From positions 30,876,001 through 30,940,000 of the forward strand of contig NC_043006.1 of assembly GCF_006345805.1 (NCBI RefSeq): a DNA stretch of 64,000 nucleotides, given 5' to 3'. This document shows positions 4,341-57,199 of this stretch, piece after piece. The stretch's first letter is position 1. Each line of letters begins with the position of its first letter. The DNA is from Octopus sinensis (Eukaryota). Below the pieces are notes generated by a model. The model saw only the letters and a list, made by a program, of their open reading frames with translations, did not search any database and was not told where the DNA came from. A program made the position numbers and the translations under genes.

Positions 4341-5562
4341 ATAACGATGGACAACATTCTGCTAAGAATTTTATCTGGCACACTAACAATTCTGCCAGCT
4401 CACTGTCTTGTAAATTACCAATTCTTATTGATTGGCACTTGAATGCTGAGGATCAAAGTTAGCTGTTATAAAAAGAAGAGGAACAAAATTATTTCTGTAT
4501 TTCATAAATAATTTAAAAATAATTTTTGGATCAGTTACAATCAAACCTCCACTCACTAATAACGGCTTAAAATAAACGTATTTCTTTTGTCAGAAACATT
4601 CTGTCGGTTTTTAAGCAACAAAAGTGTACCAAAAAGGGAAGGGGGTGGGAGAAATGTAATGTTTTTATTTTGTCTGTAATTTACTCTGTTTAATAACGAT
4701 TTCTTAAAAAGGTAAAAATAGAGATGGAATGTGGTTGATTAAATAAACCATAATATAGTTCTTGTACTTAATTAGAACCAGCAAGAGAGTATCTATATGG
4801 TTGCTCACTCTGCTAGAAAGAGCTGTTAAATCTCTCTCAGATCACACCTTTATAGTGTTCCAATAGATAATACAGTCTGAGTAAAAGACAAATAACTGCA
4901 GCTGAAATGTCTTTCCATTATTCATTTGCTGGATCAAGGGCTGACCTAGAGTTAAACACCACCACCACCACCGCCATTGACAGCAACAACAACAGCTTGT
5001 ACTTCTTTTCTCTTCTCTTGTGGAGGAAACGTGAAGCTGACTATTTTCAGCTCCTTTATTTCTATATTTTTCACTTCTTGTAATTCTTTTTTTCTGCTTC
5101 AATATGTCTGTCTTACTTTATTTAAAAACATTTCCTTGCTATTGAAAATAACATTTGTTGTTGGGCAAACTGCTTTACAAGAGCCATCTTGTCTATTTTT
5201 ATTCCAGTGTCATCTTTATTGCCATCATTTACCAAGTTCTTTGTTGAGAATAAAATTGTGTCACAGTCAGATTGATATTTCCTATGCAACACACTTTCTC
5301 GACACCCATTTTTGGAATGTATTGTGCACCCCACCCAGATCGGTTTTTGTTTTTAAGCTATTTAGTGTTGTTAGTCGTCACACCGAAATAGTTCTTTATA
5401 TCTTTTTTATGAATTATTATCAAAACTTGCATCTTGTGTGAATTCTTTTCAATTCAATATCTTTCTATTTATATATTTTGGCATTTGTAATACGTGCAGT
5501 CTCTCTCGGCTCATTGGTATCAGGATTAAAACAGTTAACAACACACACACACATTTATATAT

Positions 5563-5957
5563 TAGGTGCAGATGTGGCTGTTTGGTAGGAAACTTGCTTC
5601 CCTATCACATGGTTCCGGGTTCAGTCCCACTGCATGGTACCTTGGGCAAATATTTTCTGCTGTAGTCTTGAGTTAACCAAAGCCTTGTCAGTGGATTTGG
5701 CAGATGGAAATTGAGAGAAGCTGGTCGAATGTGTGTGTGTCTCTCTCCAGTGTTGGTGTGTTTATGTTCCTGTAACTTGGTGATTCAGTGTAAGAGACCA
5801 ATAAAATACACACCTGGCTTAATAAAGTAAAAGTAAAAGTACTGGTGTCAATTCATTTGACTAAAAAAAACTGAGGCTATAATAAAACACACTTGCCCAA
5901 GCGGGACTGAACCTGGAACAGTGTACTTTGGAAACAAGCTTCTTAACCACACAGCCA
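5563..5957. mobile_element. SINE family A (+, 5563-5862) abutting an inverted head fragment (-, about 5873-5957)
   Basis: Similarity to other family A copies. Confidence 0.8.
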
Positions 5958-6482
5958 TTAAGGAAAAGTTAATGAGGCTTGGTATTGCTGAGGAGGCAGC
6001 GGTATGTTGTCACTGGCCATGACACCCGTCAGCACTGCCTGGCTGTAAATGTGCACCAAGGAGTAAATATTTCTTTTTTTTTTTTTGATGATATTAAATA
6101 TTGTAATCACCAATTTGAGACAGAAAAACGTAATAAGTCACTAATGAGACACAAACCATGTCTGTACTGTTTGTTGTGTGTGTTATGAATGAAGCTACAA
6201 AGGTTCTGTCACTTCCCTCTCTCTCTCTCAAATTAAGTCCATAAATCAATTCTCTTATATTACTTTTTACCTTACTATTTTATGCCTACAAAACAATTGA
6301 TCAGTTGCTTAGTACTTATAGGTTAGACAAGGTGTTGCATGTCTGTTTGATGTGTGGGGACAAGAAATAACTTCATGGACTTAATTATGAATGAATTAAA
6401 TGCTGAGACTTTTAATCATCATCATCATCATCATCATCACATGACATTACTCTTAATAGCATCAAATCTCATTTGTTGTATA

Positions 6483-6838
6483 TCTTTTACTTGTTTCAGA
6501 CATTAGATTGTGGCCATGCTGGGGCACCACCTTAAAGAGGTTTTAGTTGAATCAGTCAATCCAAATACCCCTTTTTTTTAAAGTTTTGTACTTATTCTAT
6601 CAACCTCCTTTTGCTGATCTGCTAAGTTATGAGAACATAAATGCATGAACACAAGTTGTCAAGTGATGGGGAGATAAACACAGACATAAAGACACACACA
6701 CACACACACATAATGTATATGAGGGTTTCTTTCAGTTTCCCTCTACCAAATCCACTCACAAGGCTTTGGTTGGCCCAGGACTATAGTAGAAGACATTTGT
6801 CCAAGGTGCCATGTATTGCGACTGAATCTGGAACCATA
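6483..6838 (-). mobile_element. SINE family A
   Basis: Reverse complement of the tail (cttttacttgtttcag) and body. Confidence 0.8.
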
Positions 6839-7204
6839 TAAAACAAAACTGGAAAATGATGTGTACGATGACTATGTACATATAATTAACCATTATTACC
6901 ACACAGTTCTTTTTTGCAGAGAGATTAAGTGGCTTGGGTAGGACTAGTGTTAAAGTTTTGATGTTTTGGACAGGATATAGCTTGGCAGGAAGTAGCATCA
7001 TCAGACTGTACTATGGTGCCATGGAGGCTGAGCAACCAGAAGAAAGGAGTATTAAAACCAAACTCACAACAGATTTTTCTCGTTATGTCTGTGAGGTCCC
7101 CATTCATTTACCAGGCATCTATTTCCTAGATAAGTGCAGTCATTGTCACATACTGACCAGGGTCCACTGCATGCTTATGCCATTTATTTTCATGTCCTTG
7201 GCTA

Positions 7205-7640
7205 GCAAAAGTGCAGTTTTCAGTTTTGTTACCTGACATTTTGAGTTCAAAACCCATTGACATCAGCATTGCATTTCATCCTTCTGGTATCAATAAAAAC
7301 AAATTAGCTTGCTTCATGGTCTCGAGTTCAGTCCCATTACATGGCTCCTTGAGCAAGTGTGTTGCCTCAGGCCAACCAAAGACTTGGGAGTGGATTTGGT
7401 AGACAAACTGAAAGAAGCTCAGCATATATATTGTGTGTATGTGTGTGTGTATGTTCTACCACAGCTTGACAACCAGTGTTGGTGTGTTTATGTCCCTGTA
7501 ACTTAGCAGTTTGATGAAAATGACCAAATAGAATAAATACCAGGTTTTAAAAAAATGATTAAGTATTGGGGTTGATTCAACTAAAAATTATTCAAGTATG
7601 GCCACAGCCTAATGACTGAATCAAGTAAAAGAGTAAAAGA
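7205..7640 (+). mobile_element. Degenerate SINE family B fragment followed by SINE family A
   Basis: gagttcaaa...gcatttcatcctt (family B), then gttcagtcccattacatggctccttgagcaagtg...gactgaatcaagtaaaagag (family A). Confidence 0.7.
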
Positions 7641-11989: not shown

Positions 11990-12302
11990 ACTGGTGGCAC
12001 GTAAAAAGCACTATCCGAATGTGATCAATGCCAGGTCCGTTGATTGGCTCCTGTGCCGGTGGCATTGTAAAAAGCACCATCTGAACGTGATCAATACCAG
12101 TCTCGCCTGACTGGTTCCTGTGCCAGTGGCACATAAAAAGCACCCACTATACTCTCAGAATGGTTGGCGCTAGGAAGGACATCCAGCTGTAGAAACGTTG
12201 TCAGGTCAGATTAGAGCCTGGTGCAGCTGCTGGTTTTCCAGACCTCAATTAAACCATCCAACCCATGCCAGCATCGAAAACAGACGTTAAATGATGATGA
12301 TG
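11990..12302 (+). mobile_element. RTE-type LINE 3' UTR fragment (family C)
   Basis: Repeated TGGCACGTAAAAAGCAC units, the AGGAAGGACATCCAGCTGTAGAAAC motif, and an ending of GACGTTAAATGATGATGATG. Confidence 0.8.
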
Positions 12303-43352: not shown

Positions 43353-45152
43353 TTGTTGTTGTTATTGTTTTACTTCTCAGAATGTTCGGTCTTGTTTGTT
43401 CTGGTAGATTCTGTGAGAGCAGACAATAGCCTGCTGTCAGAGGCCTCACAGGGTCTCTTTCTGCACATTATAGGCTTTGATACTTGGTTTTTAATTATTG
43501 TGGGAGACATTCAACATCCAAGTACCAATCTCAAAATCCTAGCTGTCCCTAACAGAGCAGTTTTTTGGGGCTTGCTCTTCTCTCATGTCAATTCCAATTT
43601 CTTTGACATATTTTTCAAACTTGGTTCCTAGTGCTCCGAGTGTCCCCACAAAAACTGGAATGACAGACACTTTCCTCATAGTCCACATTCTTGCAATTTC
43701 GTCTTTTAGTATTCTCTGTACTTTTCAATCTTTTCTAGTTCTTTGTCATTTAGGCATGCATCTCCAGGTATTGCAATCTCTATGATTTTGTCTTCCTTTT
43801 TTCCTTTATCTACCACAACAATATCTCGTCTCTGAGCCTTGATTAGGGAGTCATATTGGATTGTAAAATCCCACAGAATCTTATGTTCCCTGTCTTGGTG
43901 ACTTTTGGATCATGTTCGTACCATTTTCAAGCTCTGTTCAGACTGCACTTTTCACATAGCCTCCAGTGGTGGAACTTAGCCACGTTATCATACCTCCTTT
44001 TGTAGTACTTTTGGGCCAAAGGGGTGATTGCTATTCTCATCTATTTGGAACTTGGTGTAATTAGTTCTCAAAGATTGTTCCTGGGCTCTGCATGTCAATG
44101 TTTCAGTGCATCCTTTCAGATCACTTTTTCTTAACCATCTCCAAGTATTGATCTTGTCTTTTCCTTCAATTTCTCTGAGGTATTGCCCATGCAGTGGTTT
44201 CATTTTCCAGATGTTTACTCTTTCTTCATTTTGTTTCTTAAATGTTTGAGGGTGCATTACATTTTCGGTAGGCATTATATTGTTAATTCTAACAGCGGCA
44301 AGCAAAGATTCACCCTGCTGTTTGATGTACCATCCCAGACTGTTCTTCCCGTTGACAACGCAGATCTTGCATCCCATGTGACCTCTTTCACCCCTCTTTC
44401 TAGACACATACAGTCTGTCAGTATCACTTTTGGGGTGTAGTTCCTTGTTCATTGTCATTACTTTTCTAGTTTACCTGTCCATTTCCTCAAGCTTGTTCTT
44501 TGTCCACCTAACAATACCTGCGTCATATTGCATTAAAGAAACAGCCCATGTGTTCATTGCTCTGATTCTGTTTTATTCCATTGAGTCTACTTCCTATAAT
44601 AAACTTGGTTCAGGTGGCGAGCTGGCAGAAACGTTAGCACACCGGGCGAAATGCTTTGCGGTATTTCGTCTGCCGCTACGTTCTGGGTTCAAATTCCGCC
44701 GAGGTCGACTTTGCCTTTCATCCTTTTGGGGTCGATTAAATAAGTACCAGTTATGCACTGGGGTCGATGTAATCGACTTACTCCGTTTGTCTGTCCTTGT
44801 TTGTCCCTTCTGTGTGTAGCCCCTTGTGGGTAGTAAAGAAATATATAATAAACTTGGTTCTTCTGAGATATTCTCACCTAAATCTTACCTTCATTTCACT
44901 TTCCTTGATTTTGTTGTATTCTAAAATCCCCAGATATTTATATCCATTAGTCTCAATATCCTTGTTTTTCTTGCCGTTGAGTAGCTCTACACCATCCGAC
45001 GACTCTACTTTGCCTCCTTGTATTATAAGCATACCACACTTTTGAGTCCCAAATTCCATTCTGATGTCTTCACTGAATATCTGCACTGTTGAAACTAGGC
45101 CATTTATGTCATTTTTTGTCTTTCCAAAGATCTTTAAATCATTCATATATAA
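43353..45152 (-). mobile_element. R4/Dong-clade non-LTR retrotransposon fragment (RT C-terminal part plus restriction-like endonuclease), pseudogenised and split by a SINE
   Basis: LLYMNDLKIF (YMDD to YMND), MEFGTQKC, YKYLGILE, HPKSDTDRLYVSRKRG, LHGQYLR, AQEQSLRTNY, HKILWDFTIQ, DIVVVDK, IEIAIPGD, TALLGTARILR; (AAC/AAT)n tail at about 43353-43370. Confidence 0.9.
44612..44843 (+). mobile_element. Young full-length SINE family B with a 17-bp target-site duplication
   Basis: TATAATAAACTTGGTTC at 44595-44611 and 44844-44860; CpGs intact. Confidence 0.95.
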
Positions 45153-45290: not shown

Positions 45291-46017
45291 GTAGTTGCTG
45301 AAACAAAATATGAATTAAGATCCAGCTAAAGTGCATAAAATATTTAAGAGGGTGGAAAAGTAAAAACAAAAATGAGTTTAAAGCTAAACTAAAACAATAG
45401 AAATAAAATGTGTGGTTGTAATAAAAGAAGGATTGTTCTTTTTGTTGGTTGTTTTGGCGATATTAATTTTTTTTCTATTTTATTTACCGCCCCCTTCCCT
45501 AACTTCCTATTTGTGAATTACCATTCTCAGCCCTGTCATGTTTATGATAATTCTCAATAATAATAATTTCTGAAATCAACTTGAAGAATAACAACAATTA
45601 TTTTCTTCAATTTTTTTTTCCTCGCCCTCTGCTGCTGCAATTTCTAAGCAGCCCCTTTTTTTTTTATTTTTCTTGCCTGCTTTCAATCCCTACCCAAGGC
45701 AAGGCTCAGTCTGCTGTGGCTATGTGCAGTGTTTTTTTCTTGTTTTATTTTGTGTATATTTGTAAGTCCTGGGCTTTGCTTAATATATTTGTCTTCCTGT
45801 TCATTAATCATTCCCAAGACACCTATTATCAAAGAGATTGTTTGTTTCCATTTCCCTCTTCCTCCAATTCATTTCCAGATCTTTTTATTTGGACAATTTA
45901 CCAATTTCTACGTTGCTGTTTGAGATTCATTATCATCTTTTTGGGAACCATAGTTTAATTTGCAGGCCCTTTCTTACTCCCTTGACCCTTAACAAAATAC
46001 TCCAGCAAATTAACCTT

Positions 46018-46154
46018 CATTATTTACATTTGACGGATATTTGTCCTCATCTTGTTTGTTGTTAACACGTTTTGGCTGATATACCCTCCAGCCTTCATCA
46101 GGTATCTTGGGGGAAATTTCGAACCTGGGTTCTTATTCCTAAGGTATTTTTTGA

Positions 46155-46192
<38 letters not shown>

Positions 46193-46486
46193 TCAATGCC
46201 TGGAATCGAACTTGGAATCTTAGGGTTAGTAGTCCGCGCTCTTAGCCACTACACCATACACCCATGGGCATATGGTGTAGTGGTTCTGAGTTTGATTCCA
46301 GGCATAATAATAATAATAACATTGAAAAATACCTTAGGAATGAGAACCCAGGTTTGAAATTTCCCCAAGACACCTGATGAATGCTGGAGGGTATATCAGC
46401 CGAAACGTGTTAACAACAAAGTTGAGGACAAATATCTGTCAAATGTAAATAATGTACATAATTCCTCATCTCTTAAATATAGAACT
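46018..46486. mobile_element. Head-to-head palindromic element: tRNA-like head, (AAT)n, hammerhead-like core and fixed tail; 14-bp TSD
   Basis: Arms 46018-46263 (-) and 46266-46486 (+); A-box TGGTGTAGTGG; B-box GTTCGATTCC (46202-46211, minus); CTGATGA at 46374-46380 and GAAA at 46402-46405; flanks AAATTAACCTTCAT / AAATTAATCTTCAT. Confidence 0.9.
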
Positions 46487-46848
46487 AAATTAATCTTCAT
46501 CTCCTGGTTTGTGTGGATTGTCCTATGCTAGAGGACGGTCACTCTACAGTCTCCAAAGACATTTCTGGTCTATCTTTAGACTCCCTCTTTTCAGTTGAAC
46601 TTGACATAACTTTCAGTGTATGAAGTCAGGTGGGATTGATAACAGCATTGGCATGGTTGGATTGCCTTTGATCAACTGTCAGCTTGGTCAGAACCAACTG
46701 GAGGCTGAACAACAACATGAGCTGTCTGTCTTTCTTACACATCGATTCATCCCCTCTTTCTGTGCCATTCGCAAATGCATACATATACTATCTCACACAC
46801 ATGTGCACACACTGTCTGACATAGACCTACTGTCTCTTTGTCTTCTCT

Positions 46849-53828: not shown

Positions 53829-55078
53829 TCATCATCATCATCATCATCATTTAACGTCCGCTTTCCATGCTAGCATGGGTTGGACGGTTCAACTGGGGTC
53901 TGGGGAGCCCGAAAGCTGCACCAGTCCAGTCAGATCTGGCAGTGTTTCTACAACTGGATGCCCTTCCTAACGCCAACCACTCTGAGAGTATAGTGGGTGA
54001 TTTTTATGTGCCACCGACACAGGTGCCAGACGAGGCTGGCAAACGGCCACACTCGGATGGTGTTTTTTATGTGCCACCGACACAGGTGCCAGACGAGGCT
54101 GGCAGACGGCCATGCTCGGATGGTGTTTTTTATGTGCCACCGACACAGGTGCCAGACGAGGCTGGCAGACGGCCATGCTCGGATGGTGTTTTTATGTGCC
54201 ACCGACACAGGTGCCAGATGAGGCTGGAAAACGGCCACGATCGGATGGTGTTTGTTACGTGCCCACAGCACGGAGGCCAGTCGATGCGGTACTGGCTATG
54301 GCCACGTTCGGATGGTTTTCTTGTGTGCCATGTGCCACCGGCACTGGTACCACAAAGATACAAATTCCATTGATGTTCATCTATTTTGATTTGTTTTGGT
54401 TTTCACTTGCCTCAACAGGTCTTCACAAGTGTCACAAGAAGGAAGGTATGCACAGGTGGACTGACTACGTCCCAGGTAGGGGCCACAGGTTATGGCCTGA
54501 CTAGTCTTGCTGGGTCTTCGGATGGTGTTTTTATGTGCCACCGACACAGGTGCCAGATGAGGCTGGCGAACGGCCACGATCGGATGGTGTTTGTTATGTG
54601 CCCACAGCACGGAGGCCAGTCGGTGCGGTACTGGCTACGGCCACGTTCGGATGGTTTTCTTGTGTGCCACCGGCACTGGTACCACAAAGATACAATTCCA
54701 TTAATGTTCATCTATTTTGATTTGTTTTGATTTGATTTGATTTGATTTGTTTTGATTTCATTTTGATTTTCACTTGCCTCAACAGGCCTTCACAAGTATC
54801 ACAAGGAGGAAGGTATGCACAGGTGGACTGACTACGTCCCAGGTAGGGGCCATGGGATATGGCCTGACTAGTCTTGCCGGGTCTTCGGATGGTGTTTTTA
54901 TGTGCCACCGACACAGGTGCTAGATGAGGCTGGCGAACGGCCATGATCGGATGGTGTTTGTTATGTGCCCACAGCACGATGGCCAGTCGATGCGGTACTG
55001 ACTACGGCCACGTTCGGATGGATTTCTTGTGTGCCACAGGCACTGGTACCACAAAGATACAAATTCCATTGATGTTCA
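53826..55078 (-). repeat. Family C RTE 3' end with nested tandem amplification (63-bp units and about 340-370-bp higher-order units)
   Basis: Unit starts at 54055, 54118 and 54181 (period 63); larger blocks start at 54181, 54520 and 54887. Confidence 0.9.
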
Positions 55079-55445: not shown

Positions 55446-56520
55446 TGTGATGTAAGTTTACTTATGTAAGTGTATGTCTGTGTCTTTTTTCAGTATCTAG
55501 AAACCTCTCAGCCTCCACCCTACCTAGACTACACCTTGTCCTACATTACCAACCTGTTGTTGCTATTTAGTTCCAGGTCACTTGTCCCAGAGGAGCAAAT
55601 CTATAATTAAAAAAACAAAAAGGAAAAACGCATTCCAGATATGACTGGATTTTTTTCAAAGCAAAGTTTATCTAAGTGTACATTATCTAATATGTACATT
55701 TGAAGCAGTAGGGTTTGATTTGAGGAAGAGTTGGTTACTGTTTCTAGGAAGTTGTGCCACTCATTGGCTCATTGCTCACCTATTGAGTATAGTGCTGCTG
55801 TAAGTATATACTTTAACGAACTGGTTGTGTAGTTGAGCAGGGTATATAGAGATGTGTCAGTGAGTGTGTGTATATGCTTGTGCTTATGTGTGTATGTTTC
55901 TACAGGATCTTAATAACTCTATAAAGCTTAGGAAAGGTTTCCTTAGTCTTATGGAGTTAACCAGATCCTGTCTTACACAGCTCTCTTTTCAGGATATTAA
56001 GCATTCCAGACCATTTAGCAAGTTCTGACACCTGAGCAAGATTTATTTCCTGCCTGATTAACTCCATAAAACTGGAGCTAAACATCAGAAATAAACCCCC
56101 AATTCCCAGACTCTAATGCATCTCTCTCTCTCTCTCTCTTGCCAAAATTTTGACATTTTAAAATCTTGTTAGTAATGGTAATAACAATCCTTTCCACTCG
56201 AGGCATGAAGCCTTAAGTTTTTGGTGGGTTGGGCTTGTTCATTACACTGACCCCAGTACATGGCTGGTACTTATTTTATCAACCCCAAAAGGATGAAAGC
56301 AAAGTCAATCTCGGAGTAATGATGATAATAATAATAATAATAATAATAGTAATAATAATAATAATAATCTTTTCTGCTCTAGGCACAAGGCCCGAAATTT
56401 TTGGAGAGAGGGCCAGTCGATTAGATCAACCCCAGTACACGACTGGTACTTAATTTATCGACTCCAAAACTTTTTTATAAACCTCAAAAACCAGTGATTA
56501 CAAATAGTTATCATAAATAC

Positions 56521-56808
56521 AGTTCTATATTTAAGAGATGAGGAATTATGTACATTATTTACATTATTTACGGGCATATGGCGTAGTGGTTAAGAGCATG
56601 GGCTACTAACCCTGAGATTCCGACTTCGATTCCACGAATTGACCTGAATAATAAAAATTTATAACATTGAAAAATACCTTAGGAATGAGAACCCTGGTTT
56701 GAAATTTCCCCAAGACACCAGATGAAGGCTGGAGGGTATATTGGCCGAAACGTGTTAACAGCAAACAAGATGAGGTCAAATATCCATCAAATGTAAATAA
56801 GGTAAATA
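56521..56808 (+). mobile_element. Second copy of the tRNA-head/hammerhead-like element, with an inverted tail at the 5' side; 12-bp TSD
   Basis: 56521-56565 is the reverse complement of the tail; head GGGCATATGGCGTAGTGGTTAAG at 56572; core CAGATGA...GAAA at 56719-56750; AGTTATCATAAA at 56506-56517 and 56809-56820. Confidence 0.9.
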
Positions 56809-57199
56809 AGTTATCATAAAGTGCTCCGTAATTAAATGTCTGGGTTGTTGTTGTTATTAAGATTAGTCTTTGAACTCTCTCTCTCATTGGTAGGGTGTCC
56901 ATTTGCAGTATTTATACCTACTCGTCTTTACATTTCATGGATAAGTCAATAGATATTCCTGGAAATGTCCATTTTAATCTGTTATTATTTCTATTTGATT
57001 TGGTTGGAGATAATGAAATGAGATGCAAACCAACATTCCTCAGTATGAAGATTATTGGTTTATTGTTGAGCAGTGGTTTGTATCTTATTTAATGTGCTAT
57101 TGCATTGCTCTTGAGAGGACTGAACTCAGCCCGATATCCAGAGCCAATACCAGATAATTTTCTTTTGGACTTGTGCTTTTAGTATATGGAATGAACCAC

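Follow-up and report, generated by a model that had tools for sequence, protein, structure and literature searches.

The window analysed here, a stretch of 64,000 nt from the genome of Octopus sinensis, carries a palindromic insertion, the parts of which are listed in Table 1. Its two inverted arms (46018-46172 and 46304-46454) are 91-94% complementary, with a weaker pairing at the centre, and the target site duplication (TSD) around them is identical at 13 of 14 positions. The initial annotation had placed an A-box on both arms, an intact B-box on the minus arm and a degenerate one on the plus arm, a terminal tail on one arm only and a 14-bp near-perfect TSD around a unit inserted in a single event, and all of these features were borne out by the present analysis. 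The plus-arm head is reduced by deletions of 28 nt and ~9 nt, and its B-box carries a C>T change. The annotation had also described the arms as separated by a 2-nt spacer. The arms were confirmed, and the spacer proved to be the loop of a hairpin, GCCC-AC-GGGC, that the parent element itself possesses. Rfam returned neither a hammerhead nor a tRNA match at this locus or in three loci of the family, and ARAGORN called no tRNA at the locus.

Table 1. Features of the palindromic insertion and of a second insertion of the same family in the window
Feature	Positions	Strand	Remarks
Left TSD, 14 bp	46007..46020	+	last 3 nt overlap the minus-arm end
Tail-less arm body (ORF N-terminal codons)	46018..46156	-	ATA in place of the start codon; extends to the inner putative RT-start cluster
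Minimal hammerhead, minus arm	46064..46106	-	3-nt cut-site deletion variant, with G12>A
(AAT)n spacer, minus arm	46157..46188	-	
tRNA-derived head, minus arm	46189..46263	-	A-box 46246-46256; B-box 46202-46213, core intact
Palindrome centre	46260..46269		remnant of the native hairpin at the putative transcription start
tRNA-derived head with internal deletions, plus arm	46265..46303	+	A-box 46273-46283; mutated B-box 46288-46299
(AAT)n spacer, plus arm	46304..46320	+	
Penelope ORF start, containing hammerhead and tail	46340..46486	+	ATG 46340-46342; one premature stop
Minimal hammerhead, plus arm	46369..46411	+	3-nt cut-site deletion variant
Stem I 5' strand, plus-arm hammerhead	46369..46373	+	
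CTGATGA, plus-arm hammerhead	46374..46380	+	
Stem II, plus-arm hammerhead	46382..46401	+	G10.1>T
GAAA, plus-arm hammerhead	46402..46405	+	
Penelope tail, 32 nt	46455..46486	+	plus arm only; lies between the two 3'-end clusters
Right TSD	46487..46500	+	
Second insertion, same Penelope family	56506..56820	+	12-bp TSD 56506-56517 / 56809-56820

The second insertion has a different layout, in which a 45-nt inverted piece bearing the tail is followed by a head and a long tail-less body, and it is likewise a variant with the 3-nt cut-site deletion.

The hammerhead core that had been proposed was substantiated in the family as a whole. The majority form consists of a stem I of 5 bp, CUGAUGA, one extra base, a stem II of 5-6 bp, GAAA, a palindromic CGU and U17, and the majority junction, GAAA-CGTT-GTGTT, is that of a standard minimal type I hammerhead. 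The same anatomy with varied pair types was found in 11 relatives that had been selected for such a motif, and when hammerhead and head were folded, their minimum-free-energy z-scores (-1.3 to +1.0) did not reach significance. In its intact form the junction was matched exactly 7,703 times in the genome, and in the version of the window 1,473 times, against 0 for reversed controls, so it is not a product of chance. The window arms belong to the 16% class lacking 3 nt (G16.2-U16.1-H17) at the cut site, and each has a private change at a further conserved position, G10.1>T on the plus arm and G12>A on the minus arm. Because of this double damage, the hammerheads of the window would not be expected to self-cleave and are most likely dead. 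The earlier caution that these copies may be inactive is thereby upheld, and its statement that no stem III follows GAAA holds for the 16% variant and not for the family majority.

As 35 of 120 arms match exactly, the 9,176 matches scale to an estimate of ~31,000 arms genome-wide, with which the lack of any copy in twenty blind 10-kb stretches is compatible. Divergence from the column majority was 4.2% outside CpG and 5.5-6% overall. On the octopus calibration given in the accessible text of one report (JC 0.065 = 18 My; PMC13282606), the family would be roughly 12-17 My old, if that calibration fits the host. No relatives of the family were found in viral contigs.

The source of these arms was traced through a copy (L004) with a GIY-YIG-like coding scrap immediately upstream of its head. 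A search with this scrap gave 20 loci, most of them ordered as ORF end, stop, ~25 nt, hairpin, head, (AAT)n and body. The complete unit order runs from the ORF stop through ~25 nt, the hairpin, the tRNA-like head, (AAT)n and the ATG to the hammerhead, which lies in the coding sequence, and then to the tail and the ORF. The reverse transcriptase (RT) encoded upstream matches Pfam RVT_1 (E 2.8e-10), and its relatives, among them an Anolis protein that is 45% identical, carry PF00078 and PF26215. Alignment of near-full-length copies with a relative of 847 aa covers residues ~55 to 846 of the latter, and tblastn matches to the relatives P0039, P0004 and P0066 are collinear over residues ~45-846. 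A natural stop-free piece of 551 aa spanning RT and GIY-YIG is 68% identical to P0004, 56% to P0039 and 36% to P0066, the Anolis Penelope-like element (PLE) protein, whose identity to the family protein is 36-45% over the comparisons made; the GIY-YIG part was assigned by alignment to P0066 and by its motif, with no Pfam call for that piece. The closest relatives are ~70% identical. In a quick, midpoint-rooted tree, built without named Neptune, Nematis or Naiad references, the family is nested among P0004, P0039 and P0066; it groups with P0039 and adjoins the clade with the Anolis protein.

Colinearity extends through the whole unit. The arm body translates as the ORF N-terminus (13/20 identical to P0039 across the hammerhead, E 2e-6), the tail of one copy (L155) passes straight into the ORF, and 12 of 60 heads lie colinear behind the ORF and run on into the UTR. 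The unit was therefore identified as the pLTR and ORF start of an autonomous Penelope/Poseidon-type element, and it is very probable that the palindrome consists of Penelope pLTR fragments, that is, the two-armed insertion scar of a protein-coding element. The Penelope link of the initial annotation was thus confirmed, and the tail runs on into the ORF in L155 and into the ORF continuation in short copies. The proposal of a separate SINE-like parasite or retrozyme was not borne out, since the unit is colinear behind the RT/GIY-YIG ORF and its body is N-terminal coding sequence of that ORF. No copy intact at full length from head to stop was seen, and there were only 5 exact matches to the pLTR-to-ORF junction, 3 of which represent one duplicated locus. 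These three (L155, L156 and L157, on C9724, C9459 and C8464) are the sole near-full-length copy with that junction, present in triplicate at 99.6-100% identity including the flanks, and are probably assembly or segmental duplicates.

The manner of insertion was analysed in 52 head-to-head pairs from which duplicates had been removed. Exactly one arm was tailed in 48 of them, neither in 4 and both in none. In reference positions the 3' ends of the arms were bimodal (50/104 at 136-150 and 48/104 at 167-171), and TSDs, mostly of 10-17 bp, were found at 41/47 palindromes versus 5/25 mismatched controls. Of 98 tail ends (the reference L155 being counted among them), 32 agreed with the ORF continuation over 4 nt or more, against 0.7 by chance, and the agreement extended to 12, 7 and 6 nt in the short copies L177, L005 and L002. 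Since tail ends follow the ORF continuation, the short copies were probably templated from RNA extending into the ORF. A duplication of 8-9 nt at the inner tail boundary (e.g. L042, L088) was present in 13/25 intact-type and 2/13 deletion-type tailed arms, which may point to a template jump at the junction with the tail.

Exact head-to-head centres on the native hairpin numbered 469. Among the 50 centres listed, the spacer read AC/GT in 36, AT in 13 and GC in 1; heteroduplex repair at the centre was considered and is unsupported, with GC at a single centre of the 50. Non-CpG changes common to both arms of a locus numbered 22, compared with 6.9 +/- 2.5 for random pairs, an excess that agrees with a common source of the two arms. 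Pairs in which both arms bear the 3-nt deletion also exceeded the 16% expectation (p about 0.02), and given these two excesses, fully independent templates for the arms are not established. An intact partner was found in 15 of the 23 palindromes with a deletion arm, on which ground fold-back self-copying as the sole origin of the palindromes was rejected, provided that the deletion is inherited.

A mechanism for such insertions is suggested by the Poseidon element of Anolis carolinensis (PAc). According to the accessible part of its report, a protein predicted to form a dimer cleaves both strands and extends them, and reverse transcription begins at two internal sites in the first ~150 nt of the ORF, the tail being the stretch between them (PMC11167929). 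By extension from that biochemistry, a dimeric RT-GIY-YIG protein may nick both strands here, and priming of cDNA at two points inside the ORF, ~120-130 and ~150 nt from its start, would give one tail-less and one tailed arm (PMC11167929). When sites near the RNA 5' end were used, cDNA synthesis would end at the start site, after which the self-complementary GCCC-AC-GGGC leader could join both cDNA ends.

The 3-nt deletion at the cut site is in frame and is present in tailed and tail-less arms alike. A marked subfamily was rejected as its explanation, as neither the body nor 600 nt of the ORF, for which the sample was small, showed a diagnostic change linked to it, and ordinary slippage was rejected as well, the neighbouring AAC repeat having slipped in only 2 of 90 arms. 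An RT jump from the 3' to the 5' cleavage product by way of a 2-nt GU microhomology would yield exactly this deletion; an unmarked subfamily combined with two-template insertions accounts for it equally well. The counterpart of the deletion, an insertion of 3 nt at that cut site, is rare and was observed in L049 and L026.

In the head, the A-box, the B-box and their spacing are canonical and the anticodon-like loop measures 7 nt, while the cloverleaf is decayed. The head outscored all 200 shuffles against 13 of the 17 host tRNAs compared (out of 30), the best match being a TTT-anticodon tRNA, and neither ARAGORN nor Rfam called it a tRNA. In the relatives, 237-502 nt separate the ORF end from the hammerhead; in this family the head begins ~25 nt after the stop and replaces almost the whole UTR. 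No A-box was found in 74 relative segments within 700 nt downstream of the matched part of the ORF, a minority of these segments reaching into the UTR, and a B-box-like match alone was present in 3 of the 74. ARAGORN found nothing in 36 relative loci, and the sole Rfam tRNA hit (L184) lay upstream of a truncated ORF. In the literature searched, with Repbase and Dfam outside its scope, no tRNA-like or Pol III promoter has been reported in a PLE pLTR. A different and abundant tRNA-derived SINE head occurs in the same genome (L014:2907-2961, L054:9876-9930, L063:8961-9015, L086, L166, L069); it is ~65% like the head of the Penelope family and is not its source.

The 5' ends of the copies are concentrated at the head. 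Exact-pattern counts were 9,176 for the hammerhead, 3,221 for the head, 912 for the UTR 39 nt upstream and 779 at ~160 nt further, a drop of 3.5-fold over 39 nt versus 1.17-fold over the next ~160 nt. The sample of 60 heads was taken from the first 69 of the listing after removal of 9 that the set already included; in 46 of them no more than 7 nt of leader remain, and the dominant 5' end lies 7-14 nt before the A-box. In type 2 promoters, Pol III is expected to start at about that distance before the A-box. By eye, ~12 of the 60 heads end 1-9 nt upstream directly on unrelated flank, without an inverted arm. Many other 5' ends abut an inverted arm, which makes the native hairpin a confounder of the pile-up.

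The unit was also compared with its relatives for T4 runs, the terminators of Pol III. Over 2,427 covered columns of the sense strand, no T4 run was common to the majority of copies, and the top share anywhere was 10%. The 28 family segments held 15 T4 runs versus 60 expected, in contrast to 406 versus 384 in 74 relative segments and 43 versus 43 in nine other retroelement-like ORF groups of the host (12 groups minus three non-coding ones); T4 runs were present in 11 of 12 relatives with both ORF and UTR visible. As the copies derive from about one master, the test amounts to one observation, and the probability of finding no T4 run was ~0.03 by synonymous shuffle, ~0.05 by the T4/T3 ratio and 0.04-0.12 by Markov models. 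The absence of T4 from this one master lineage was therefore taken as moderate support (P about 0.01-0.05). G4 runs are absent too (0 of 13 G3 runs), and 6 of 48 T-poor relative segments are T4-free. In a related Penelope family (L195:2501-4406 and L213:2501-4623) there is no T4 in ~2 kb of ORF and there are six in the UTR, from which it follows that an absence confined to the ORF can arise without a tRNA head.

The 5' pile-up together with the lack of a common T4 run suggests Pol III transcription, with moderate support, and the odds that the head would work as a Pol III promoter were put at about even. Transcription may start ~13 nt before the A-box and continue across the 2.6-kb unit, which is free of terminators. 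The need to translate an uncapped Pol III RNA counts against this possibility. RNA reads from a related organism (three runs of one study, 5,183-7,401 reads) were alike in both directions, ran into unlike flanks in 65-69% and gave no defined transcript start or end in these three runs; RNA libraries of that type bear neither for nor against Pol III starts or cleavage.

Taken together, these data favour, with a probability of about 0.5, an autonomous Penelope element whose end is a tRNA-derived promoter and of which the palindrome is the insertion product. The same autonomous element could instead have captured the tRNA-like piece passively, its RNA being made by Pol II or by host read-through and its pile-up by fold-back or annealing of cDNA at the native hairpin, and we regard this as a possibility to be taken seriously, doubtful though it is. 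The 469 exact centres on the hairpin speak for passive capture, as do the moderate strength of the T4 statistic, RNA reads that resemble read-through of old copies and the Penelope element of D. virilis, whose internal promoter, in the available portion of its report, is LINE-like, lacks a TATA box and includes a DPE-type element (PMC2377424). It is harder to reconcile with the ~12 heads that abut unrelated flank and lack an inverted arm, with the near-complete replacement of the UTR and with a T4 depletion specific to the family; moreover, an RT stalled at an RNA hairpin would be expected to halt before the stem and not past the loop. A further-reaching version of the preferred reading, which we consider unlikely, holds jointly that the Pol II promoter and UTR were swapped for a tRNA-derived Pol III promoter, with every T4 run purged from a 2.6-kb unit now present as ~30,000 arms, and that the 3-nt deletion is the scar of an RT jump across ribozyme-cleaved RNA and hence a record of cleavage in vivo.

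A Pol III SINE in its own right, either descended from Penelope or parasitizing it and maintained by short master copies of its own, would explain why ~80% of heads have no upstream UTR, and some solo copies, having both boxes and no internal terminator, could be secondary sources. The sequence is nonetheless that of the parent's pLTR and ORF start, and instead of a non-autonomous unit sharing only its 3' end with a partner, the whole unit, head included, was found in the autonomous element. The short copies, furthermore, run on into the ORF continuation, and no diagnostic position splits them from ORF-linked copies (11 and 8 copies only) or intact from deletion copies, so that such a SINE seems improbable. 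Still further from the data is a non-LTR retrozyme with circular RNA made from head-to-tail tandem hammerhead repeats. The hammerhead is of type I, and animal retrozymes are related to pLTRs according to the accessible part of one preprint (bioRxiv 10.64898/2026.07.22.740005). Against this, the arms stand head-to-head on opposite strands, which would give a transcript with one sense hammerhead and a ~190-bp hairpin; the loci examined were dominated by head-to-head pairs and contained no tandem arrays and only occasional direct duplicates (e.g. L006, L015, L089), and the window copies have lost the cut site. A retrozyme is thus very improbable.

The palindrome, the tail and the hammerhead are already known as PLE features; the tRNA-derived module in the pLTR of an autonomous PLE is new with respect to the literature searched, Repbase and Dfam lying outside that scope. 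Pol III promoters in retroelements are regarded as a mark of short non-autonomous passengers such as SINEs and TRIMp3. Schistosoma SM-alpha repeats are transcribed by Pol III. SM-alpha shares a SINE-like head and a type I hammerhead with the present family and, in the passages available, is non-coding, whereas the minimal hammerhead here lies within the coding start of an RT ORF (PMC8490949). The TRIMp3 elements Cassandra, Helenus and Ajax resemble it in having a small-RNA-derived Pol III promoter in the terminal repeat; as described in the accessible text, they belong to the non-autonomous LTR elements and measure 311-1,263 bp, in contrast to an autonomous 2.6-kb non-LTR element, and their autonomous partners are expected by the author to use Pol II (PMC10886601).

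Among PLEs, the passages available describe the inverted-plus-tail layout as general (PMC8557442), and PAc agrees with this family in its ORF of RT and C-terminal GIY-YIG, in the overlap of hammerhead and ORF start and in the two arm-end sites that bound the tail (PMC11167929). PAc differs in that the same passages describe no tRNA-like module or Pol III promoter, and the ATG, ~35 nt upstream of the core here, is at stem II in PAc (PMC11167929). Insertion of PAc in vitro did not require hammerhead cleavage, and RNA-seq revealed no cleaved ends (PMC11167929). Penelope of D. virilis likewise forms partial tandems and inverted 5'-truncated copies, with a 30-40-bp tail at one end and a promoter within the pLTR; where it has, in the text available, a TATA-less LINE-like DPE-type promoter and an intron, this family has an A/B-box module (PMC2377424, PMC8557442). 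The minimal hammerhead is the same as that of other metazoan PLEs, which is predicted to act as a dimer, and the frequent (16%) in-frame 3-nt cut-site deletion, window copies included, sets this family apart from what the accessible part of that report describes (PMC4209133).

If the Pol III reading is correct, a self-sufficient RT-endonuclease element on a Pol III promoter would be a missing link for the origin of SINE heads, and cap-independent translation would be required. The role of the Penelope hammerhead in vivo is a separate question, which the thousands of copies with a deletion precisely at the cut site make testable. If neither holds, this is a Penelope family of the usual kind, and fragments of it can be mistaken for a SINE in annotation.

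The palindrome (46018-46486), if transcribed, was predicted by folding to form a hairpin of ~190 bp (-290 kcal/mol), and thousands of such loci could serve as dsRNA substrates for editing or silencing. Other repeats were observed in the window as well. Tandem units of 63 and 66 bp at 53996-54284 and 11994-12144 are part of another abundant interspersed repeat, and a stop-free stretch of 160 aa on the minus strand (43988-44470) is presumably a fragment of an R4/Dong-type non-LTR element, which it resembles.
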